62,961 nucleotides of DNA from positions 1 through 62,961 of the IMG/VR virus record IMGVR_UViG_3300048592_000259, one strand, 5' to 3'. The position numbers and the translations under genes are program-made. Each line of letters starts with the position of its first letter. The first letter of the stretch is position 1. Origin of the DNA: a virus (taxonomy: Duplodnaviria; Caudoviricetes). A model generated the notes under the pieces. The model was not told the origin of the DNA, searched no databases, and saw only the letters and a list, made by a program, of their open reading frames with translations. Below are positions 51,746-62,961 of the stretch, one piece after another.

Positions 51746-54700
51746 CTACTGCGCCAGGCGTTCGCGCAGGTCGTTGCGCATGCCGGCGGGCGCCGCCTTC
51801 ACGAAGCGTTCGCTGCGCGTGGTCTGCATTTCCTTCACGCGGCGCGCGATGTCGCTCGGGCGAATCTGGATCTTCGCTTCGGGGTTCTTCTCGTTCCAGT
51901 CGCGCAGCTGCGCGAGCGCGTCGTTCACCTTCGCCTTGTCCTTCTCGAAGATGCCGGTCGCCCAGCGGTCGGCCACTTCGCCCTGCACCGCGCGCACCAG
52001 GTTCGCGGTCTGCTGGCCTTCGCTGATGATGCGCGACTCGGCGGCCACCTTCGACGGGTTGAACCCCGTGGCGCGGGCGATCGCGTCGGTCGTGTCGGTC
52101 GCGATGACGCGCCGGCCGCGGCTGTCGAGCGCGTAGCCGCCCTGGATCATGTCGACGGCCTTCGCCGCGTCCTGGAGCGCCTTCGGCGCGAACTGGCGCG
52201 CCGCGGCGCCGAACTCGCCCGACTGCGCGCTCGTGACGGCATCCGCGACGCTGCGCGCGAGCCCGCCGGCCGGCCCCAGCACGTCCACGATGTCGCGGCC
52301 CTTGTCGACGTTCGACTTCTTCGCGAGGCCCGTGCCGGGGATCAGGTTGCCCATCCCCATGCGGCCCTGCACGTCGAGCGGGAAGCCGGGCATCGTCGAC
52401 GCGCCGTGCAGCACGAACGCGCCCAGGTCCTTCCCGAGGGTCGAGACGATGAACGCGCGCTTCTGCTCCTTCGTGTTCCAGTTGTACCCGAGGGACTGCG
52501 CGATCGTGTCGATCAGGTCGTCCAGGTCGTCCGAGAACGGGAGCCCGGAGATCCCGGACGCCAGCATCAGCAGGCCCAGCGCGTACGCGCGCTCGCGCGG
52601 GGGCAGGCGCTTCAGGAACTCCAGGTAGGCGATCGAGTACTGCTTGAACGTCATCACCGTCGCGCCGATCGGGCCGCGCGCCCAATTCGGCCGGTTCGCC
52701 TTGTTGTAGACGCCCTGCGTCTCCGCGATCGCGTTGACCGCGAAGTCGTAGGCGCTCTTGGCGCCGGCGTCGGCAAGCTGCTCGGCGTTCCAGTCCTTCG
52801 CCATCCCGAAGGCGGCGAGGAAGGTGGACCGGCGGTTGAACTGCTCGGCGACGGCGAACATCGACCCCCACACCTTGAGGCCCTTCCGGAGGTAGATGTT
52901 CGACCCGAGCCCGCGGATCGACTCGGCGTACAGCTGGTGGATTTCGTGCGGCGAGACGGTGCCCTCGCGCTCGGCGCGCGCGAGCGCCGCGGCCGTGGCG
53001 GGATCCGTCGGCCGCGTCACCGCCTCCTTCATGCCTCGCGCGAGCGCGCCCGCGGCCTTGGTCGCGCCGAACTGCGACAGGTAGGGCAGCGTCATCATGA
53101 ACGGCTGGGTCGTGTTCACGACCGCCGACGCGACCGACCCGCCGAGGTACTGGACGAACAGGAAGCCGCGCAGCGACGCCGCTTCCTCCTTCGGGTCCTG
53201 GAGGTAGGTGACGAGCTTGACCGCCTCGTCCTTCACGTCGCCCATGCGCTTCGGGATCGCCTCGACCGCATCGTTCATGTCGGCGTTGTTGAGGTTCCCC
53301 GACGCCGCGCGCGCGTTGCTCGTGATGAAGGCCGACAGCACGCGCTGGGCGTCCTGGTCGAAGCCGGCGATGCCCTGGCGTTGCAGCAGGCGCTTGAGCG
53401 CGCTGCGGTTGTTCAGGGCCATGCGGATGAACTCGTGGAACGCCTCGCGCTGGTCGGCGCCGGTCGCCTTCGCGAACAACTCCAGCGTGTCCGGCGTCAT
53501 CCCGCGGAACATCTTGTGGGCTTCCTTCGACAGCGTGCCCTGGGTGACTTGGGCGTTCGGGAACTCGGCGCGCAGCGACCGCGCCATTGCGTTCGCGTCC
53601 GCCTGGCGCTCGAACATGCCGAAGTAGACGCGGTTGTCGCCCTGCACCGCGTCGACGGTGTACTGGCCGAAGCGCATCAGCGGCGCGTAGCCCTCGCGGA
53701 TCAACTCGCGCACGCGGCCGTACCGGTTCAGGATCTCGCCGGCCGTCGCGGAAAGCTCCGCGCGCGCCGCCTCGGTCGTCGCGGCCTGCGACAGGCGGAT
53801 CAACTCGCCAGAGAGGGCCTGGGACGCGCCGTGGTGCGTCAGGAGCATGGCCTGGTCGATGAACGCCTTGTCGACCTTCCCGCGCGCCAGGCGAGCCATT
53901 TCCGACTGCGAGAGCGTTTCCAGCGACCGTTCGATCGCCGCGCGCGACTCCTGGTAGAGGCCGACCTGGCGCGGCGTCAGGTGGAAGCGATCGCGCAACT
54001 CGGCTTCGGTGTACTCGCGCTCGTCGATCAGCGTGCCGTGGAACAGCGGCACCGACACGGCGCGCACGTCCTTCGACGACGGGCCGATCTTGAGGACGCC
54101 CGAGAGCCCTTCGAGCTTCGGCAGGAGGTCCTTCGCCCGGTCGGCCGCGTCGTTCGCGATGCGCGACACGTCGTTGACGTACCGCTGCGCCTGGTCGTAG
54201 ACCCGCTTGAACTCGGGCACGACGGTCGCCTTGTGGAACTGCGTGCCGACGGTCTTGTGCCAGGGGTTGAAGACGCGCTGGGTCGTCAGGTGGTCCTGGA
54301 TGCGATCGGTGATCCTCGACACGGTGCCGCGGGACACCCCGAACGGCAGGCCGGGCTCGGCGACGATCCATTGCGGGTCAGCCTCGCCGACTTCCGGCTG
54401 GGCGGCATCGCCGGCCGTGTAGCGGCGCAGCGGTTCGGCCGCGACCGGCTTGGCCTCGTCGTCCGCTTCCTCCCCGCCCTCGGGCGCCGCGGCGGCGCCG
54501 TTGTCCTCCACCCCGATCCCGAGGGCCTTGTCGAGTTCGCGCTGGCGCTCCAGTAGCTCCTGGACCTTCGCGGCCTGCGGGTAGGGCTTCTCCGACTCGG
54601 CGCGCGCGACGGCCGCGTTGGCCGCGTTCTTCTCGGCCACGGCCGTCATCCGGGCCGCTTCCTCCGTCACGTCGCGCACCAGCCCTTCGAGGCGCTGGAT

Positions 54701-57700
54701 GTTGCCGTCGGCCGACTCGCCGGCCGTGGTCGCGTAGCTGTTCGCGCCCTGGAGCGCGAGGCGCACGGTCACATGGTCGCCGTAGCTCGCCTTCTCCTTC
54801 GTCACGGCGACCGGGAAGCCGCCCAGGTGCCCGACGACGATCGGCGGCTGGTTCATGCCGACTTCGCTGACGGCGCGCGCGAAGGCGCCCGCCGCCTCCA
54901 CGCGGTCGGCGTAGCGGCGATCGCCCACGGTCATCAGGAAGGCGTCCCCGCGCGTCGACACCACGCGGCCCGCGTCGAGCTTCGCGCGCTCGGCGTAGGC
55001 ACGCTGGTTCGTCGCGTACTGTTCGAGCTTCGTTGCCTCCAGCCGGAGCCGGTAGGCGTTCTCGTTGTGGCGGGCCTGGGACGACGTGAGGCGCGACAAC
55101 TCGCCGTCGACGTTGGCCTTTTCGAGGATGAGCGGGTTCCCCGAGGCGAACGCCTTCAACTCGGCGTAGGTCAGGGCGCGGTCGCTGACTTCCTCGATTT
55201 CGCGCACCGACGGATCCGCGCGCATCACCTGGTCGATGAAGGCCGACTTGCGCTCGACCGCCGACCACATGAAGGCGTCGAAGGACCCCTCGGTGATGTA
55301 GTGCCAGAGTTCGACTTCCTCGTTCTCGTTGCCCTGCCGCACCATGCGGCCGTTGCGCTGTTCAACGTCGGCGGGACGCCACGGCACGTCCAGATGGTGC
55401 AGGGCCTTCAGGAGGCGCTGGACGTTCGTGCCGGCGCCCATCTTGTCGGTCGAACCCAGCAGGATGCGCACGCGGCCGGCGCGCACGTCCTCGAACAGCC
55501 GATCCTTCTTGAGGTCGGTGTCCGCGTCCTGGATGAAGGCGACTTCGTTCGCCGGCACGCCCGCCTTCACGAGCTTGTCGCGGATGTCCTGGTAGACGCT
55601 GAACTTGCCCTTGTGGGGCGTCGAGAGGTCCGAGAAGATCAACTGCGACGACTTCGCCGCGCGCGTCTCGGTCCAGATCCGCAGGACGTTGGCGACCGCC
55701 TTGTTCACCTTCGACTCGGGGTCGTCCGCCGCCTTCGGGTCGACCAGGCGCATGTCGAGCGCGGCCTTGCGACCCTCGCTCGTGATCTTGAGCATGTTGT
55801 CCTGCCGCGGGTCGACCGTGCCGGTCTTGATCGCCTCGGCGCGCGCCACGAGATCCGCGACGAACGCTTCCATTTCGGCGGTCTTCGGCGAGGTCATCGA
55901 CTGCGGCTTGCCGCCGCGCAGCTTCGGCACCGGCAGCTTGAGCATGTCCGCCGTCTTCACGTCGGCGAACTCCCCGAACATCTGCGCGAGCTCGCCCACG
56001 TTGACGAACTTCGCGAACCGGGTCTTCGGAGCGTACCCGCCGCCGTCGGCGCGCATCTCGTACTGCGTGACCGCCTCGCCGAACTGAGCGGCCCAATTGT
56101 CGAATTGGTCGAGCCCCGCGGCCTGGAGGGACTTCATGCCCAGGTACCGCTGCATCGTGAACATTTCCGTCACGCTGTTCGCGATCGGGGTGCCGGTCAT
56201 GAAGACCACGGCGCCGCGGCCGTTCGCCTGGTCGTTCAACCACGCCGTCTTCAACAGCATGTCGGTCGACCGCTGCGAGTCCGCCGTGCCGATACCCGGC
56301 ATGCGGTCCATTTTCGTCTCGAAGCCGAGGTTCTTGAAGTAGTGGGCTTCGTCGACGAACAGGCGATCGACGCCGAGTTCCTCGAAGCGCACCACGTCGT
56401 CCTTCGCCGCCATCGCCAGTTGCCGGTCGAGGCGCGCCTTCAGGTCCTTCTTGCGCTTCTCCAGGCGCTTCTGGAGACGGCTGTTCTTCCCGCCGCCCTG
56501 GGTCTGAGCCTGTTCGAGGATGGCTTCCTCGACCTGCCGGATGCGCTCCTGGATGAAGTTGGCGACGTACTCGTCCGACATCGCGAGCTTCTGGAACGAC
56601 GAGTGCGTGATGACGATGCCGTCCCAATTCCCGGTCGCGATGCGCGAGGCGAGCTCCTTCCGCTTTTCGGCGACCAGATCCTCCTTGCGCGCCAGCAGCA
56701 GGTTCGCGTTCGGGTACAGCTGGAGCCATTCCCGCGAGTACTGTTCCAGCATGTGATTCGGAACGACGTGCATCGGCTTGCGCGCCGCGCCGATCCGCTT
56801 CAACTCCATGCTGCCGGCGATCGCCGTGAAGGTCTTGCCGGCGCCGACCGCGTGCGCGAGCAGGGTGTTCCCGCCCGTGACGATCCGCCACGCACCGTCC
56901 TTCACGTTCTGGCGCAGCTTGATGAGCGGGTTCGTGCCCGGCAGCGTCAGGTGCGACCCGTCGTACTTCCGCAGCTGGGTCGTGTTGAACTCGTCGTTGT
57001 AGAGGCGAGCGAGCGCGTCGCGCACGTCGTCGGTGCGCATCCACCACGCCTCGAACTCGGCGCGGATCGCGTCGATCTTCTCGGCCGCGGCCAGCGTCGC
57101 GGCGGTGTTGACCGTCGTGGTGCCGTCCGAATGGTGAATCAGGATCTTCGGCTTCTGCTGGTTCAGGGCCGACTCGAACAGCGACAGCGCGTGCAGTTCG
57201 GGCGTGCCCCATACCCCGCGCATCTGCGGCGTGTCCGTGTTCACCGAGCGCGGCGTGACGCGCCAGTCCGATGTGGTGGGCGAGAAGTGGATGTCGAAGG
57301 CGTTGCGCTGCGGGGTGCCGAACGTCTCCTGCGCGAAGCGCGCCAGCACGTCGGTCGGAATCCACCGCTGGCCCAGGCGGGCGCGGATGGCCGACGGCAC
57401 CAGGTCTTGCGGGATGACGGCGCGCAGCGCCTTGGCGTTCGCCTCGAAGGCCGGATCGGTCAGGGCGGCCGCCTCCGCTTCCCGGAGCTTCGCGCGCACG
57501 TTGCCCGACAGGTACGCCTCGGACTGCTGCCACGAACGTTCCACCGGGTCGAGGTAGATGCGCCCGTCGAGCCCGCCGATCAACTCGGCCTCGGAGAAGC
57601 CCGTCAGCCGGCTCATGTGCGCCAGGTCGACGCGCCCGAGCTCGTTCAGGGAGGCGGTCAGCGCGTCGATCGCGTTGTCGGCCGACGTGATCGGCACCGA

Positions 57701-60700
57701 CCGCTGGACCGTGCGCTGGGTGAACACGTCGGCCTTCGCCGCCGTCTTCTTCTCGGGGTTCCACTTCTCCAGGGCGAGCAGGAGCGGCGCGTCCGAGTCT
57801 TCGATGATGGTCGCGCGGTTCGCCTTCTCGTTCAGGTAGCCGTGCTTCTTGACGAAGGCGTCGTAGGCGTCGTTCAGGGCCGCGGCGGTGGCGTCGAAGC
57901 GCGCCTGGTCGTCCGTCTCGACCTGGGTGCGCAGGTGCGCGCGCGCGGCGTCGCGAATGGCGATCGCCGCCGTCACCTTCGCCGCGTCCAGGTGGCTCAT
58001 GGGCTGGAGCAGCCCGCGGCCCTTCTGGAAGACCTTGCCGTTCTTCACGACCAGCGCGCCCGGCTTGATGTCGTCCGGCGCCGGGATCGGCTCGTCGAAC
58101 ACCTTCGAGGTCGCGATCGGCTTCACCCCGTCGGCGGGGAGCTTGGCGATCGCGTCGCGGATGCTCGCCGGCAGGTCGCGGCCGTCCGACTTGAGCGCTG
58201 CGTCGCCGCGGCCGTACATCGTGCCCTCGCGCGTCATCCGCCCCATCATCATTTCGGGATGGGCGACGAAGTACTCGTTGACGCGCAGGTCGCCGTCCGC
58301 CGATTTGATCGTGTCCAGGTTCAGCCACTTCGCCTCGCCGGGCGCGGGATCCGCCTCGCGCTCGCGCTTGCGCAGGAAGATGATGTCCGTCGTGACTTCG
58401 GTGTTCGCGTTCGCCTTGAAGGCGTCGTTCGGCAGGCGGATCGCGCCCAGGAATTCGCCCTTGCGCGCGATCAGCGCGCGGGCCGCGCTGTTCATCTTGT
58501 CCATCGTGCCGTCGCTCGTGACGAACGCGACGACGCCGCCAGGGCGCACGCGGTCGAGCGCCTTGGCGAAGAAGTAGTCGTGGATGAACAGCTTGTGCTT
58601 GTTGTACTTCGGGTCGCTGACGGTGTAGTCGCCGAACGGGACGTTCGAGATTGCCACGTCGAAGAAGCCGTCCGGGAACTGCGCCTGCTCGAAGCCCTGC
58701 ACCCGCACGTCGGCGGTCTGGTACAGCTGCTTGGAGATCCGGCCGGACAGGCTGTCGAGTTCCACCCCGGCGAGCGTCGACGCGCTGCGCGCGGCGTCCG
58801 GCATCAGGCCGAAGAAGTGGCCGACGCCCATCGCGGGCTCCAGGACGCGACCGCCCTTGAAGCCCATGTGCGCGAGCGCGTCCCACATCGACGTGATGAT
58901 CTGCGGCGCGGTGTAGTGGGCGTTCGGCGTCGACCCGCGCGCGAGTTCGTATTCCTCCTTCGTCAGGAGGTCGAATAGCTCGCGGCGCTCCTTCGCCCAC
59001 TCGGGGGACTGGCCGCGTTCCATCGACATCGGGCCGTAGCCCGACCGGTTCGTCTCCTTCAGCCAGCCGTCGAAGTAGTCGTAGTGGCCGAGGTAGAAGG
59101 CGTTCTTCATGCCGCCCCACCCGACGTAGCGCGAAAGCGTCTCCTGCTCGGCCGGCGTCGCGGCGCGGCCCTCGGATTCGAGCGTCTTCAGGACGCGGAT
59201 CGCTTCGAGGTTGCCGGCGTACTTCTGCTTCAACCCGCCGGTCCCGATCGTCTCGGGCCGCGTGATGCGGAAATTTACGCCCGTGCGCGTGGGCGGCTTG
59301 TACGCGATGGGGCGTCGTACCCGTTCGCGTCCGCCTCCCTTGTCTCCGCGTCCTTGGTCAGCAGCAGGTCCGGAATCACCGCCGCTTCCGCCTCGACGAG
59401 AGCGGTCCCCGGATCCGCCCCCTTCGCGATCAGGCTGTCCATCATCGCGTCGACCGCGTTGAACGTTTCCTCGGCCTTCGCCGCCACCGTCGCGTTGAGC
59501 GTCCCGTCCGCCTGCATCTGCTCGAACGCTTCCGGGTCCGCCTCCTTGAGGCTTCGCCGCGCCATCGTTTCGTACTTCTTGGGTGCCACCTTGGCCTCCT
59601 TGCGAGAACAGGTCGTCGAACAGGTCCGCGATCGCGCCGGGCGACTCCTTCTTCGCGCGCGCGACGACGGCCTTACGCTCCGGAACCGGGTCGCCGAACA
59701 GGTCGAGCGTTTCGCGCGCGTGGTATTCGCGCGCCTCTTTGCGACCACCGAGCCGGAAGTCGTGGCGCGGGAAGATGCCGGCGGCCTGAATCGAACCCGT
59801 GATCGGGTAGGAATTCGGGTCCGCCGTCACGGGCGCATCGACGATGGCGTCGCGCAGGAATCCGTTGGACACGGCCACCGAGGCTACGCGCCCGAGATTG
59901 TTCGGAACGCCGACCGCGAAGATGCCGTTGCCGCTTCCGGACGCCCGCGCGAGGCGGGACAGCATCGCGCCGGTCCGCAGGTTCTCCTTGAATCGTTCGT
60001 GCGGGATTTCTGCGAGCAGGGTGATCTTGTTGTCGGCCCCCACGCCGATGAGCGCGATCATGCCCGGCTTCTGGATCTTCTTGCCGATCCGCGCTACGTC
60101 GTATTCGTTTTCGACGCGATCGTAGCCGAGATCCTTCGCCGGGGCGGGCGCGTTCGCCGCGAGGGTGCGGACTTCCGCCACGAACCTTTTCCGCTTCCGG
60201 TCAATCCGGATCAGCCCGAACTTGTTCGTGTCGAGGATGACGTGCCCGCCGTATAGCTTCGCGAGCGCCTTATTTCCGAGAATGTAGTCGGTCAGGTTGA
60301 CATCGGAGCTCGATGCCTCGGGGCGCCCGGACGGGTGGTTGTGCATCAGGTAGAACTTGTCCGCGTCGAGCGACTTCGCGATGTACTCCAGGCGCAGCAG
60401 GAACATCTTCGGCGAGCCGACGAACGCCGCGGTTACTGACGGCAGGCGCGAGGTCACCGCTTCCTCGTGGATGACCTTACCGCCCTTGGTGAAGACGTAG
60501 CGCATCGTCTCGTAGCGCGGGTCGCGGTAGACCTGTGCGACCGCCGCCAGGTCGGCGTAGCTCGTGACCGGCTTCCCGAGCAGCGTCGATTCCCCGTCGC
60601 GGATCATGTCGAGATTGATCGCCGCGGCGAGGACCGACACGCGGCCGGCCTGGGTGAGTTCGCGCATGGCGCCGTCGCGCGCGGCCTTCGCCTTCGCGTT

Positions 60701-62961
60701 CTCGTCGGCGCGCTTCGGCAGCGCGTCCACGGCCTTGAGCGCGGCCGTCTGCGCCGCCGCCACCAGGTCGTCGGTGCGCTTCGCCGTCTCGGCGCGCTGG
60801 GCCTTCGTCATGGACGCGCCGGGCTCGAACAGCGCCTTCTGGCCGGCCGCGGCGCCCACGTCGGCGTCGCGATCGCTGCCGGTCAGGGCGAAGCCCTTCG
60901 GGTCGGGCGCACGATCGCGCTTCGCCGCGTCGGCCTCGCGCTTGGCGGCGATCGCCGCGTCGACCTTCGCGGCCTGTTCCGTCTGCGCAACAAGCGAGAA
61001 ACCGCCGGTCGCCGCATTGTCGCTATCCCCTTGACTTGGGGGTACAATTGGGGTTGTGGACCTTCCCGATTCCTTCCCCTCCGGCGCCTCCTTCCTCGAC
61101 GTGGAAGGCGTGCCCGTGTCGCTCGGCGCGGGCGTCAAGGGGCTGTACTGCGCCGCTTGGGACGGCAAGGCGCCGCGACCCTTCCCGGTCGACTCGGCGC
61201 GGTCCAACGGCGCCCCGGTGAGCGAAGACGGCTTCCGCGCCTTGGTCGCCTCCTTCCACGCCGCGTCGTAGATCGCCTTCATCTTCGCGTTCAGGGTCGC
61301 GATGATGCGGGCCTCGAACGGTGTCGGGTCGCGCTTCTCCGCCTCCAGCTTGCGTTCCAGCTTCGCGCGGCGCTCGTACAGCGGGTGCGCGATTTTCTTG
61401 GCGCCGAGCATCGCCGGCAGGTTCACCTGCACTTCGGCGACGATGCCGCCGACGTTCACGTTGAACTTGGCGTCCCGGTAGCCGTCGACGGGATCCGCCG
61501 AATCGTCCAGGAGATTGCGCCGGCCGTTCGGCAGCACGTCGAACGCCGCGAGGATCTGTGCGACCGCCTCGCGCGCCTCGGCCGGCGTGTCGGCGACGAT
61601 CGTGCCGCGCAGCACGTCCTTGATCCTGGCCGCGTCGCCCGCGTAGTCGGCCTGGATCTTCTCGACGGCGCGCGCGGTGCCCTTGAGCGGCGCCAGCTTG
61701 GCCTTGCCGCCGATCGCCGCGGCGATCGTCTCCAGGGCGGCGTCGAAGTCGGGCTTCGCCGCCTCGGCCGCGGAGTAGATCATGGACAGCGTTTCCCGCG
61801 CGTCGGGCGGGAGCTTCTCGGCGTGCGCATCGCCCTTGAGCGGGTCGTCCAGGATGTCGACCTGCTTCTCGTCGAACACCTTGAACTCGACCGCCTCGGA
61901 CGTGTCGCCGTTGCTCGCGTGGATCGCGCCGTCGAAGCCCGCGGCCTTGAGCTTCGCGACTTCGGCGGGGTCGTCGAGGAACTGGTAGGCGTCGAAGTAG
62001 AGGTCGCCCAGCTTCGATGGGTCGCGCTTGAGAAGGTCCGCGACGTTCGAGTACTCGGCCGAGAAGCCCTCGTCCCAATTGTTCGTGCCTTCGATCGCGT
62101 GGGCGAACTTGAGCGCGATGCGCTTCGCCTCTGCCGCGCCGAGCTCGCGCTGGATCGCGTCGAGCCCGATGAACGGGTCGTCCGGCTGGTCGATGAACGG
62201 GTTGTCGAGCGTCAGGCGCGCGCGCAGGACGCGCGGGTCGACGGCGTACTTGTCTTGAATCCGGTCGTTCGGCTCGTCGGCGTAGGTCTGCGCGGCCTCG
62301 CGCTTGTCGACGAACGTGATGGACGGGTTGCGCGTCTGGACCTTGCGGCCGTCGCGCTTGCCGTGTTCGCCGCGGTAGACGACCGCGGGCAGCTTGGAAC
62401 GCTTCAGCCCTTGGGCGGGCTTGGCCGCTTGAGCGGCGGTTCCTTGCTGTTGATCCGGTTCCCCGCGGCGACGATCAGGTGCGTCAGGCTCTCGACCTGC
62501 GCCGTCCTCGCCTCGTTGCGGGGCTGCGCGGCTGGGGCCATTTTCGGCGGCGATCCGGGGTGCTTCGCTGCCATACGAGTCCTCCAGGAACCGGTTGACG
62601 CGGGCCGTCAGGTCCGCGGTCGTGGCCGGCGCGCGCCCGAACATATCGCCCGAGGTCGCCGCCTGCTTCTCATCGTACAGGAAGCGCGCGGCCTCGGAAA
62701 AGCCCGCCGCCAGGCGCTTCGGCGACCGCGTGTTCTGGAGCATCAGCCCCGTCATCGCGACCGTCATCGGGTCGCGGCCCAGGAGATCCGGCTGGCGCAG
62801 CACTTCCTCGCCCTTGAGCCCCCGCGACTTCGCCTCGCGGACGATCTGCGCGGCCTCGATCATCGCCGGCCGGATGTCGAGTTCGCCACCGAAGTCCACC
62901 TTCGCCCACGCGGGCGCGGCGGCGGTGAAGGCGTGCAGGATGTTCTTGATGTCCGAGTCGT
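51746..62961 (-). CDS. Main part of the giant DarB-like polyvalent protein (total ~4,494 aa): ART-like, RelA/SpoT, JAB/RadC, N6-adenine MTase, SNF2 helicase and PLxRFG domains
   Basis: ART-like VYRG...GFDG...EFKVFD (~62390-61860); RelA/SpoT KGTARAVEK, DVLRG, GYRD, EVQ, HPLYE (~61780-61370); JAB HNHPSG...SSSD (~60340); MTase LEPAMGVG and NVPF; helicase AVGAGKT, VDEAH, TGTP, QRNGRMVRQGN; PLMRFG at 53683-53666. Confidence 0.92.
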   Translation of the reverse strand, partial: DSDIKNILHAFTAAAPAWAKVDFGGELDIRPAMIEAAQIVREAKSRGLKGEEVLRQPDLLGRDPMTVAMTGLMLQNTRSPKRLAAGFSEAARFLYDEKQAATSGDMFGRAPATTADLTARVNRFLEDSYGSEAPRIAAENGPSRAAPQRGEDGAGREPDAPDRRRGEPDQQQGTAAQAAKPAQGLKRSKLPAVVYRGEHGKRDGRKVQTRNPSITFVDKREAAQTYADEPNDRIQDKYAVDPRVLRARLTLDNPFIDQPDDPFIGLDAIQRELGAAEAKRIALKFAHAIEGTNNWDEGFSAEYSNVADLLKRDPSKLGDLYFDAYQFLDDPAEVAKLKAAGFDGAIHASNGDTSEAVEFKVFDEKQVDILDDPLKGDAHAEKLPPDARETLSMIYSAAEAAKPDFDAALETIAAAIGGKAKLAPLKGTARAVEKIQADYAGDAARIKDVLRGTIVADTPAEAREAVAQILAAFDVLPNGRRNLLDDSADPVDGYRDAKFNVNVGGIVAEVQVNLPAMLGAKKIAHPLYERRAKLERKLEAEKRDPTPFEARIIATLNAKMKAIYDAAWKEATKARKPSSLTGAPLDRAESTGKGRGALPSQAAQYSPLTPAPSDTGTPSTSRKEAPEGKESGRSTTPIVPPSQGDSDNAATGGFSLVAQTEQAAKVDAAIAAKREADAAKRDRAPDPKGFALTGSDRDADVGAAAGQKALFEPGASMTKAQRAETAKRTDDLVAAAQTAALKAVDALPKRADENAKAKAARDGAMRELTQAGRVSVLAAAINLDMIRDGESTLLGKPVTSYADLAAVAQVYRDPRYETMRYVFTKGGKVIHEEAVTSRLPSVTAAFVGSPKMFLLRLEYIAKSLDADKFYLMHNHPSGRPEASSSDVNLTDYILGNKALAKLYGGHVILDTNKFGLIRIDRKRKRFVAEVRTLAANAPAPAKDLGYDRVENEYDVARIGKKIQKPGMIALIGVGADNKITLLAEIPHERFKENLRTGAMLSRLARASGSGNGIFAVGVPNNLGRVASVAVSNGFLRDAIVDAPVTADPNSYPITGSIQAAGIFPRHDFRLGGRKEAREYHARETLDLFGDPVPERKAVVARAKKESPGAIADLFDDLFSQGGQGGTQEVRNDGAAKPQGGGPGSVRADAGGRDAQRDGGGEGRGNVQRGRRDDGQPDREGGGSGDRSRRGGSGGDSGPAADQGRGDKGGGRERVRRPIAYKPPTRTGVNFRITRPETIGTGGLKQKYAGNLEAIRVLKTLESEGRAATPAEQETLSRYVGWGGMKNAFYLGHYDYFDGWLKETNRSGYGPMSMERGQSPEWAKERRELFDLLTKEEYELARGSTPNAHYTAPQIITSMWDALAHMGFKGGRVLEPAMGVGHFFGLMPDAARSASTLAGVELDSLSGRISKQLYQTADVRVQGFEQAQFPDGFFDVAISNVPFGDYTVSDPKYNKHKLFIHDYFFAKALDRVRPGGVVAFVTSDGTMDKMNSAARALIARKGEFLGAIRLPNDAFKANANTEVTTDIIFLRKREREADPAPGEAKWLNLDTIKSADGDLRVNEYFVAHPEMMMGRMTREGTMYGRGDAALKSDGRDLPASIRDAIAKLPADGVKPIATSKVFDEPIPAPDDIKPGALVVKNGKVFQKGRGLLQPMSHLDAAKVTAAIAIRDAARAHLRTQVETDDQARFDATAAALNDAYDAFVKKHGYLNEKANRATIIEDSDAPLLLALEKWNPEKKTAAKADVFTQRTVQRSVPITSADNAIDALTASLNELGRVDLAHMSRLTGFSEAELIGGLDGRIYLDPVERSWQQSEAYLSGNVRAKLREAEAAALTDPAFEANAKALRAVIPQDLVPSAIRARLGQRWIPTDVLARFAQETFGTPQRNAFDIHFSPTTSDWRVTPRSVNTDTPQMRGVWGTPELHALSLFESALNQQKPKILIHHSDGTTTVNTAATLAAAEKIDAIRAEFEAWWMRTDDVRDALARLYNDEFNTTQLRKYDGSHLTLPGTNPLIKLRQNVKDGAWRIVTGGNTLLAHAVGAGKTFTAIAGSMELKRIGAARKPMHVVPNHMLEQYSREWLQLYPNANLLLARKEDLVAEKRKELASRIATGNWDGIVITHSSFQKLAMSDEYVANFIQERIRQVEEAILEQAQTQGGGKNSRLQKRLEKRKKDLKARLDRQLAMAAKDDVVRFEELGVDRLFVDEAHYFKNLGFETKMDRMPGIGTADSQRSTDMLLKTAWLNDQANGRGAVVFMTGTPIANSVTEMFTMQRYLGMKSLQAAGLDQFDNWAAQFGEAVTQYEMRADGGGYAPKTRFAKFVNVGELAQMFGEFADVKTADMLKLPVPKLRGGKPQSMTSPKTAEMEAFVADLVARAEAIKTGTVDPRQDNMLKITSEGRKAALDMRLVDPKAADDPESKVNKAVANVLRIWTETRAAKSSQLIFSDLSTPHKGKFSVYQDIRDKLVKAGVPANEVAFIQDADTDLKKDRLFEDVRAGRVRILLGSTDKMGAGTNVQRLLKALHHLDVPWRPADVEQRNGRMVRQGNENEEVELWHYITEGSFDAFMWSAVERKSAFIDQVMRADPSVREIEEVSDRALTYAELKAFASGNPLILEKANVDGELSRLTSSQARHNENAYRLRLEATKLEQYATNQRAYAERAKLDAGRVVSTRGDAFLMTVGDRRYADRVEAAGAFARAVSEVGMNQPPIVVGHLGGFPVAVTKEKASYGDHVTVRLALQGANSYATTAGESADGNIQRLEGLVRDVTEEAARMTAVAEKNAANAAVARAESEKPYPQAAKVQELLERQRELDKALGIGVEDNGAAAAPEGGEEADDEAKPVAAEPLRRYTAGDAAQPEVGEADPQWIVAEPGLPFGVSRGTVSRITDRIQDHLTTQRVFNPWHKTVGTQFHKATVVPEFKRVYDQAQRYVNDVSRIANDAADRAKDLLPKLEGLSGVLKIGPSSKDVRAVSVPLFHGTLIDEREYTEAELRDRFHLTPRQVGLYQESRAAIERSLETLSQSEMARLARGKVDKAFIDQAMLLTHHGASQALSGELIRLSQAATTEAARAELSATAGEILNRYGRVRELIREGYAPLMRFGQYTVDAVQGDNRVYFGMFERQADANAMARSLRAEFPNAQVTQGTLSKEAHKMFRGMTPDTLELFAKATGADQREAFHEFIRMALNNRSALKRLLQRQGIAGFDQDAQRVLSAFITSNARAASGNLNNADMNDAVEAIPKRMGDVKDEAVKLVTYLQDPKEEAASLRGFLFVQYLGGSVASAVVNTTQPFMMTLPYLSQFGATKAAGALARGMKEAVTRPTDPATAAALARAEREGTVSPHEIHQLYAESIRGLGSNIYLRKGLKVWGSMFAVAEQFNRRSTFLAAFGMAKDWNAEQLADAGAKSAYDFAVNAIAETQGVYNKANRPNWARGPIGATVMTFKQYSIAYLEFLKRLPPRERAYALGLLMLASGISGLPFSDDLDDLIDTIAQSLGYNWNTKEQKRAFIVSTLGKDLGAFVLHGASTMPGFPLDVQGRMGMGNLIPGTGLAKKSNVDKGRDIVDVLGPAGGLARSVADAVTSAQSGEFGAAARQFAPKALQDAAKAVDMIQGGYALDSRGRRVIATDTTDAIARATGFNPSKVAAESRIISEGQQTANLVRAVQGEVADRWATGIFEKDKAKVNDALAQLRDWNEKNPEAKIQIRPSDIARRVKEMQTTRSERFVKAAPAGMRNDLRERLAQ
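59275..59589 (-). CDS. Overprinted TnpV-like protein, 104 aa, nested out of frame in the giant gene
   Basis: SD AAGGAGG 5 nt before GTG; high GC3 in this frame while the host frame is a Gly/Arg linker; KYETMARRSLKEADP...GTL...EAEAAVIPDLL. Confidence 0.65.
   Translation of the reverse strand: MAPKKYETMARRSLKEADPEAFEQMQADGTLNATVAAKAEETFNAVDAMMDSLIAKGADPGTALVEAEAAVIPDLLLTKDAETREADANGYDAPSRTSRPRARA
61043..61055 (+). promoter_or_regulatory. Putative antisense promoter (-10 TACAAT) for a leaderless nested ORF
   Basis: TACAAT-TGGGGTT-GTG parallels the early promoter TACGAT-GGGGTT-GTG at 28400; no canonical -35 at 17 bp. Confidence 0.5.
61056..61271 (+). CDS. Antisense nested 71-aa protein directly behind the RelA/SpoT domain (candidate antitoxin/immunity protein)
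   Basis: Globular-looking sequence with an upstream -10 box, opposite a Ser/Pro/Thr low-complexity linker of the host protein. Confidence 0.55.
   Translation: MDLPDSFPSGASFLDVEGVPVSLGAGVKGLYCAAWDGKAPRPFPVDSARSNGAPVSEDGFRALVASFHAAS
62404..62574 (-). CDS. Overprinted 56-aa basic protein nested out of frame in the giant gene, not in the ORF track
   Basis: SD GGAGG 6 nt before ATG; MAAKHPGSPPKMAPAAQPRNEARTAQVESLTHLIVAAGNRINSKEPPLKRPSPPKG; GC3 bias shifts to this frame. Confidence 0.55.
   Translation of the reverse strand: MAAKHPGSPPKMAPAAQPRNEARTAQVESLTHLIVAAGNRINSKEPPLKRPSPPKG
62835..62961. repeat. Terminal direct repeat identical to 1-127
   Basis: Exact sequence match. Confidence 0.95.

Follow-up and report, generated by a model that had tools for sequence, protein, structure and literature searches.

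The window analysed here is the whole 62,961-nucleotide (nt) IMG/VR virus record IMGVR_UViG_3300048592_000259 (Caudoviricetes), whose minus strand carries a giant open reading frame (ORF), hereafter the host ORF. By its domain matches and the names of its homologues, the product is assigned to the DarB-like polyvalent proteins, which combine an N6-adenine methyltransferase and an SF2 helicase in one large polypeptide of phages or conjugative elements, and an anti-restriction activity is predicted for it. Embedded in this ORF (51746-62899), in the +1 frame relative to it and next to the methyltransferase segment, lies a second, small ORF of 104 codons, which is the subject of this report. An earlier sequence-only reading of the window had proposed that a perfect Shine-Dalgarno (SD) sequence and a GTG codon open here a TnpV-like gene printed over the host frame, and direct reading of the minus strand at 59275-59601 bears out the AAGGAGG, the GTG and the 104-aa ORF.

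As the window is GC-rich (68.8% GC) and holds 149 ORFs of at least 150 amino acids (aa), the openness of an alternative frame is worthless as evidence; it is the frame plot that is decisive. The host ORF as a whole has GC contents of 0.67, 0.46 and 0.92 at codon positions 1, 2 and 3 (the last termed GC3), and from about 59600 to about 59320 the host GC3 falls to 0.38-0.47 while that of the small frame climbs to 0.90-0.95, the signal returning to the host frame past the small ORF. These ~300 bases are thus compositionally coded in the small frame. The host translation is correspondingly peculiar, as residues ~1096-1212 comprise 28% Gly, 16% Arg and 9% hydrophobic residues, compared with 27% hydrophobic residues in the whole protein. 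The host-frame string NDGAAKPQGGGPGSVRADAGGRDAQRDGGGEGRG, which had been quoted in the sequence-only reading as the mark of a real gene read off-frame, is present in the host translation and, together with the GC3 switch, upholds that observation.

Relatives were gathered with the N-terminal segment of the methyltransferase (window positions 58400-59269, minus strand) as the anchor, which brought in viral contigs (4 at first, then 80) together with 80 loci in bacterial genomes, mostly metagenome-assembled genomes of Verrucomicrobiota. Altogether 165 loci were examined, a few contigs being present twice, and they yielded 108 unique small-ORF sequences and 46 representatives, defined as positional homologues below 60% identity. 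When an iterated profile of the small ORF was run on all three forward frames upstream of the anchor, the ORF was found in 123 of the 165 loci, 122 times in +1, once in +2 and never in frame; the window ORF scores 51 bits against the profile of its positional homologues. The relatives are located in viral contigs and prophage-like loci, and in most of the tabulated loci the composition switches in the same way shortly before the methyltransferase, with a +1 ORF of 90-200 codons. Conservation of the frame in relatives, which the sequence-only reading had made a check on its proposal, is therefore what is found (122 of 123 loci).

A few loci depart from this arrangement. The +2 copy (L120) has a host frame open for just 147 nt and may be broken, and L109 has its small gene 416-743 nt upstream, clear of any overlap and with three stops in the host frame. 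At 11 further loci (L004, L022, L038, L044, L047, L062, L065, L075, L078, L080 and L084) the TnpV-type profile gives no match, and a different +1 ORF of 109-159 codons occupies the same spot, ~320-515 nt upstream of the anchor. No Pfam match was obtained for these alternative ORFs; the host frame has no stops at any of the 11 loci, several of the ORFs share the motif WETCFxSWL, and the upstream host frame has [DE]LF.

The host frame is free of stops in 107 of the 108 unique sequences, L109 being the exception, and the third frame is open in none of them. Among the 46 representatives the host frame is open in 45, where 6.0 would be expected from locus codon usage and 17.0 from synonymous permutation within the ORF, and in AT-richer loci it is open where 8-12 stops would be expected. 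A natural control was obtained by searching 200 clostridial genomes with PF14198, the TnpV family of Pfam; 71 genomes had a match, and the best 30 loci were sampled. The equivalent frame contains 2-16 stops in 25 of these 30 genes. It contains none in the other five (L186, L189, L190, L197 and L198). These are canonical, high-scoring TnpV genes in DNA of 39-56% GC, and the surrounding ORF extends at least 886 nt beyond the gene on the upstream side and, as far as the locus reaches, at least 1494 nt on the downstream side; in L189 the methyltransferase starts 1283 nt downstream of TnpV, with other domains intervening. TnpV therefore exists both free and engulfed, with the second frame kept open solely in the engulfed copies.

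The pattern of substitution agrees with the composition. In a single clade of 49 Verrucomicrobia-type sequences, nucleotide diversity at positions 1, 2 and 3 of the small frame is 0.220, 0.166 and 0.398, and pairs of sequences are on average 72.8% identical in the small protein, compared with 49.8% in the host-frame peptide read from the same bases. This pattern argues that the small gene is under ordinary purifying selection and that for the host reading the main constraint is the absence of stops, so that the small gene would be the older and more constrained reading and the host linker the overprinted one. The composition switch, the +1 relation, the open host frame and the purifying selection all support the claim that two real frames share these bases; the direction of overprinting has to be reversed, as composition and selection point to the host linker, rather than the small gene that the sequence-only reading had stressed, as the newer layer.

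The use of the host frame across the overlap can be followed in the same loci. In 41 of the 108, the window included, it runs for kilobases upstream into recognisable domains without meeting a stop, and must therefore be read through the overlap if its N-terminus is translated. In the remaining 67, which lack an N-terminal fusion, just 60-100 nt separate the start of the host ORF from the small gene, and the resulting short N-terminal host peptide contains QLx[LF]F in 62 of them, compared with none of 2297 background windows. The host proteins of these loci (L090, L094, L086 and 59 others) begin with M-A-x-R-R...QL[DSNE][LF]F, and the variability of the middle residue (D, S, N or E) fits a peptide motif, unlike a nucleotide signal. 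The window has a corresponding, weaker motif, ADLFDDLFS, directly before the linker. QLx[LF]F resembles the beta-clamp-binding consensus, and by it the methyltransferase-helicase would be tethered by way of its off-frame linker. As for the small frame, a candidate ATG start is present in 96 of the 108 unique loci, and an SD-like 4-mer precedes a candidate start in 49, compared with 10% per start-like codon in the background.

The family of the small protein is most clearly seen in its homologues. PF14198 is matched at E <= 0.01 by 20 of the 46 diverse representatives, the best at 2.1e-29, and it is the top match for two independent viral homologues (E 0.011 and 0.012). The Firmicute-type members are canonical TnpV, and transitive homology makes the window copy a divergent member of the same family, so that the resemblance noted by eye in the sequence-only reading was right at the level of the family, in keeping also with the 51-bit profile score. 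The small-ORF profile matched 3062 cluster representatives at E <= 0.001 among 1.84 billion proteins; the best 150 of these matches are mostly stand-alone proteins of 76-215 aa, and in the few longer ones the domain is C-terminal. One representative of 500 aa carries a TnpV-like domain at residues 411-490. A tblastn search of plasmids and phages with the window protein gave no match, and neither did a pattern search of viral contigs, the window copy being too divergent for searches with a single sequence; NCBIfam returned nothing for the small proteins.

The literature on TnpV offers two leads. An excision role has been postulated from similarity to lambda Xis, according to PMC3158075; no tested function for TnpV was found in the literature. 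In integrative and conjugative elements (ICEs) of Streptococcus suis, small mobile elements carrying a TnpV gene are reported (PMC9815147) to integrate specifically into snf2. Such integration may be a route by which tnpV entered methyltransferase-SNF2 genes, or may be a misreading of an embedded tnpV.

The +1 ORF is also present in cultured phages, being found in eight of ten (JC1, Bcep22, Itty13, SopranoGao, Atu_ph08, PBC5, VvAW1 and Pavtok) with E-values from 4e-9 to 8e-27. In Ralstonia phage Gerry a comparable +1 ORF of 131 codons stays under the profile thresholds, and the profile finds no +1 ORF in the Streptococcus element phi-SsuZKB4_rum. None of the ten records annotates a separate gene for the embedded ORF, and, PBC5 and Itty13 excepted, the giant coding sequence (CDS) alone is listed; nine records have no coding feature for the small frame, and that of PBC5 covers the segment as the end of orf33. 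In the Itty13 record (L204, NC_070969.1) the only CDSs over the DarB-like region are on the strand opposite the methyltransferase match, and antisense ORFs have probably been called there in place of the giant gene. The embedded gene is undescribed in the literature searched (TnpV, polyvalent proteins, overprinting, DarB and Bcep22), subscription journals and supplements aside. The accessible text of the polyvalent-protein paper (PMC5512222) makes no mention of TnpV, frameshift or overlapping, and in that of the JC1 paper (PMC9144972) the word 'embedded' is used for Rz/Rz1 only. The pairing of TnpV with a DarB-like protein and the direction of overprinting appear to be new.

The features of the locus are collected in Table 1. 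Within the host protein, the methyltransferase segment begins right after the embedded gene, the methyltransferase region recognised by Pfam occupying ~aa 1350-1480, and the Pfam matches of the host to methyltransferase, Eco57I, ResIII, SNF2 and Helicase_C all lie near or under their cut-offs. Homologous giant proteins of cultured podophages bear the RefSeq label 'DarB-like antirestriction', and PMC9144972 reports the JC1 homologue, gp69, in virions, where 51 of its peptides gave a coverage of 15.6%. The host frame stays open to 62959, and its true start may lie past the end of the record or across a permuted junction.

Table 1. Features of the host ORF and of the embedded ORF in the window
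Feature	Position	Strand	Basis and remarks
Shine-Dalgarno-like AAGGAGG	59595..59601	minus	Read directly; 5-nt spacer to GTG
Embedded gene, probable member of the TnpV family, 104 codons	59275..59589	minus	GTG 59589-59587, TAA 59277-59275; host +1 frame
Predicted folded four-helix core of the small protein, residues 1-78, pI 4.3	59356..59589	minus	AlphaFold model
Host-frame Gly/Arg/Asp-rich low-complexity linker, ~aa 1100-1205	59285..59602	minus	Composition; collapse of host GC3; same bases as embedded gene
Host ORF, 3717 aa, DarB-like polyvalent protein	51746..62899	minus	Pfam, NCBIfam, RefSeq names of homologues
RadC-like JAB motif, aa 844-873	60281..60370	minus	PF04002, 22.9 bits against a cut-off of 22.1; weak NCBIfam RadC matches
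Host-frame motif ADLFDDLFS directly before linker	59603..59629	minus	Host translation
Methyltransferase segment, host aa 1196-1760	57620..59314	minus	Homologues 39-57% identical; weak Pfam Methyltransf_11, Eco57I
Helical region past methyltransferase core, aa ~1634-1723	57731..58000	minus	Contact with small protein, a prediction only
SNF2/ResIII/Helicase_C helicase region, aa 2011-2523	55331..56869	minus	Three Pfam matches just below cut-offs; DrmD-like SNF2, 1.9e-14 (NCBIfam)
C-terminal PLxRFG domain, aa 3070-3704	51788..53692	minus	NF032893, E 3.5e-148, 495 bits against a cut-off of 100

AlphaFold2, run with the family alignment, models the small protein as four helices (residues 3-17, 19-28, 31-55 and 60-75) with a predicted local distance difference test (pLDDT) score of 86.7 and a predicted template modelling (pTM) score of 0.67. 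The pLDDT exceeds 90 up to about residue 75, and the tail (residues 76-104) has values of 56-75. The protein is acidic, with an isoelectric point (pI) of 4.6, or 4.3 for the core. The sequence-only reading had further suggested that it may be an accessory subunit of the methyltransferase-helicase, and a complex was modelled from host aa 1196-1760 (alignment of 44) and small-protein residues 1-80 (alignment of 46). The predicted complex reaches an interface score (ipSAE) of 0.77 (0.76, 0.78 and 0.77 in the individual runs), compared with 0.00 for the best of three controls; partner pLDDT is at least 82, and at least 70% of the contacts are common to the runs. In an approximate calibration, own alignments having been used here, the mark was reached by 116 of 157 solved complexes and by 2 of 215 mismatched pairs. 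Since a sequence search of solved structures returned only designed helical repeats and no TnpV chain, the score is unlikely to come from the memory of the model. The predicted contacts join small-protein residues 1-5 and 43-65 to host aa ~1634-1723 (residues 439-528 of the 565-residue segment), those on the host side including aa ~1689-1716. The chances that the small protein is an accessory subunit, or trans-acting partner, of the same polyvalent protein are roughly balanced; the predicted complex speaks for the suggestion, and the co-occurrence test described below gave it no support.

Taken together, these results make it very likely that positions 59275-59589 hold a real, selected TnpV-family gene embedded in +1 within a DarB-like polyvalent gene; an ancestral tnpV was probably engulfed there. 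In the mechanism that we propose, ribosomes in the host frame meet no stop and would read the overlap as a Gly/Arg/Asp-rich linker, presumably disordered, joining the RadC-containing N-terminal part of the protein to the methyltransferase-helicase part, and other ribosomes would initiate internally, at the SD-GTG, to produce the 104-aa protein. The tnpV gene would be older, the host frame having been extended or fused through it, and stops would since have been kept out of the host frame by selection, chiefly against T at third codon positions of the small gene. The small protein would dock onto the helical region lying past the methyltransferase core, and embedding would guarantee co-inheritance and co-expression of the partners. 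Stated for the family at large, gene engulfment would fuse two flanking frames by reading through an older gene in its -1 frame, which would yield a disordered tether. It is conceivable, if on balance doubtful, that by this route the DarB-like proteins of many phages, prophages and conjugative elements have acquired an obligatory hidden subunit of the TnpV family.

Several points weigh against the reading of an engulfed and expressed tnpV. In the window alone, the probability that the host frame is open is 0.48 by synonymous permutation and 0.75 by locus codon usage, and the case depends on relatives that are just 39-57% identical to the window in the neighbouring domain. The tail probability of 7e-31 for the openness of the host frame presumes independent sequences and is overstated by their kinship. 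The window protein scores 14.9 bits against PF14198 (E 0.027), its sole Pfam match, which is below the 27-bit cut-off, and the SD-like motif occurs in fewer than half of the loci (49 of 108). That both frames are translated is probable, as judged from sequence signals alone. In the record of Sinorhizobium phage PBC5 (L207, AF448724.1) the TnpV-like segment (locus 658-883) shares its frame with orf33, annotated upstream of it, and the frame of the methyltransferase (orf23) opens just 1107 nt upstream of the anchor, so that PBC5 either uses another mode of expression, with TnpV as a C-terminal domain, or contains a frameshift in an old record. The structure search proposed by the sequence-only reading brought no structural relative that hints at a function: Foldseek of the small-protein model against PDB and BFVD gave no match at E <= 0.001, the best BFVD row (E 0.6, probability 0.99, TM 0.53) being to a piece of a 1093-residue viral protein. 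The contact region is also found in 17 relatives without the embedded ORF, where its identity to the window is 0.36, compared with 0.43 in 42 ORF-bearing loci, and because it is present both with and without the embedded gene, co-occurrence lends the binding no support. Gene neighbourhood, also proposed as a check, favours the pairing among the anchored loci, where the ORF stands beside the methyltransferase in 123 of 165. It fails to do so in clostridia, where this methyltransferase lies within 1.5 kb in just 1 of 30 TnpV loci and 25 of the 30 genes are stand-alone; a general link between TnpV function and this partner cannot be made from the clostridial loci.

The explanation that survives best beside ours is that the embedded gene is real and its function unrelated to the host, as would be the case for a recombination directionality factor of the Xis kind, a role postulated for TnpV of Tn4451, or for a small regulator, the linker being simply a tolerant site for it. 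This would account for the 25 of 30 clostridial TnpV genes that stand alone, for the contact region in relatives without the embedded gene, and for the different +1 ORF, without a Pfam match, at the same spot in 11 loci. We nevertheless hold it to be unlikely, as the predicted complex passes where the controls score 0.00, the acidic core (pI 4.3) is unlike a DNA-binding Xis, and the association with the methyltransferase domain extends to 123 of 165 loci across phyla.

It is far less credible that the swallowed tnpV is an untranslated relic, whose codon signature and open frame are leftovers while the host linker alone is made. That translation is judged from sequence signals, the divergence of the window copy from Pfam (E 0.027), a C-terminal tail (residues 76-104) that is of low confidence and off-frame in look, and SD-like motifs in just 49 of 108 loci would all suit such a relic. 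A dead frame, however, would gather stops, as the third frame has done in 108 of 108 loci, whereas the small ORF is still uninterrupted and alignable among relatives sharing just 39-57% identity in the domain next to it, shows purifying selection (identity of 72.8% against 49.8% for the host frame), keeps candidate ATG starts in 96 of 108 loci and, in the window copy, still folds confidently in the model.

Recoding would be another way to use both frames, either by a -1 slip that yields a TnpV-methyltransferase-helicase product or by a +1 slip that yields an N-terminal-TnpV product ending at the stop of the small ORF. The frame relation is indeed fixed, as a frameshift site requires (+1 in 122 of 123 loci), and TnpV-like C-terminal ends do exist, in PHROG 938 (positions 2078-2157), in the 500-aa representative (411-490) and in orf33 of PBC5. 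We give recoding a very slim chance. Slippery heptamers of the form XXXYYYZ occur in the -1 phase in just 5 of 108 loci, compared with 13 and 41 in the other phases, and on these counts of -1 sites, with no conserved slippery site, a programmed -1 frameshift from the small frame into the methyltransferase frame is rejected. Moreover, the small-ORF stop lies at no fixed distance from the methyltransferase (+88 to -101 nt in adjacent loci), the host frame remains open over all of the small gene, a feature that a -1 slip at the gene's end does not demand, and most small ORFs have their own ATG. Finally, an artefact, i.e. a chance open frame in DNA of 68.8% GC that is rich in long spurious ORFs and leaves the host frame open by chance about half the time in the window, or an in-frame domain displaced by two compensating indels or sequencing errors, is scarcely credible, as the sharp GC3 switch coincides with the ORF, the arrangement recurs in +1 in 122 of 123 loci and never in frame over many assemblies and phyla, it is also seen in AT-richer DNA where 8-12 host-frame stops would be expected, and profile and fold both indicate a real protein.

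If tnpV was engulfed and remains in use, a conserved gene would be added to cultured and well-studied phages, and the orphan TnpV family would gain a concrete candidate partner. The overlap would also have an unusual origin, in which a large gene overprints a small one and the off-frame reading serves as a flexible linker, and the case shows that composition-aware frame plots can detect embedded genes which a surrounding giant ORF hides from gene callers. Should the predicted partnership be true, TnpV, an orphan family since Tn4451, would be a partner or chaperone of methyltransferase-helicase anti-restriction machines; unannotated genes would then lie concealed quite generally in the linkers of giant phage proteins, as the second type of +1 ORF (11 loci) hints.

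Among known systems, the TnpV proteins of Tn4451-type elements share with the window protein the sequence family, the small size (~80-130 aa), the all-helical character and the carriage on mobile elements. They differ in that the canonical genes are stand-alone (25 of 30 with stops in the -1 frame), whereas the window copy is divergent and embedded. The host can be compared with DarB of phage P1, which reportedly needs separate helper proteins. The likeness lies in the host being, by the names of its homologues, a virion-type methyltransferase-helicase anti-restriction protein, with JC1 gp69 in virions; on the other hand, the P1 helpers are separate genes of other families, the match to phage D6, which is P1-like, covers just 61% of the methyltransferase query (34.6% identity), and the window protein adds RadC and PLxRFG parts.

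In architecture, the closest known case is the Rz/Rz1 spanin pair of phage lambda, whose inner gene is wholly contained in the outer one, in its +1 frame, with both genes expressed and their products cooperating. Full embedding in +1 is the shared trait, read here from the DNA itself; the proteins and their function are unrelated, the outer reading is in our case a presumably disordered linker of a 3717-aa protein, and the inner gene comes from an old family that is also found free. In viral overprinting generally, the usual case is that a new small gene is born within an old one, and one of the two frames may encode a disordered protein. The locus in the window resembles this in that one stretch of DNA supplies two frames and the compositionally odd one is of low complexity, but GC3, selection and the clostridial control suggest the opposite history, with the small gene old and the linker of the giant gene the new reading.

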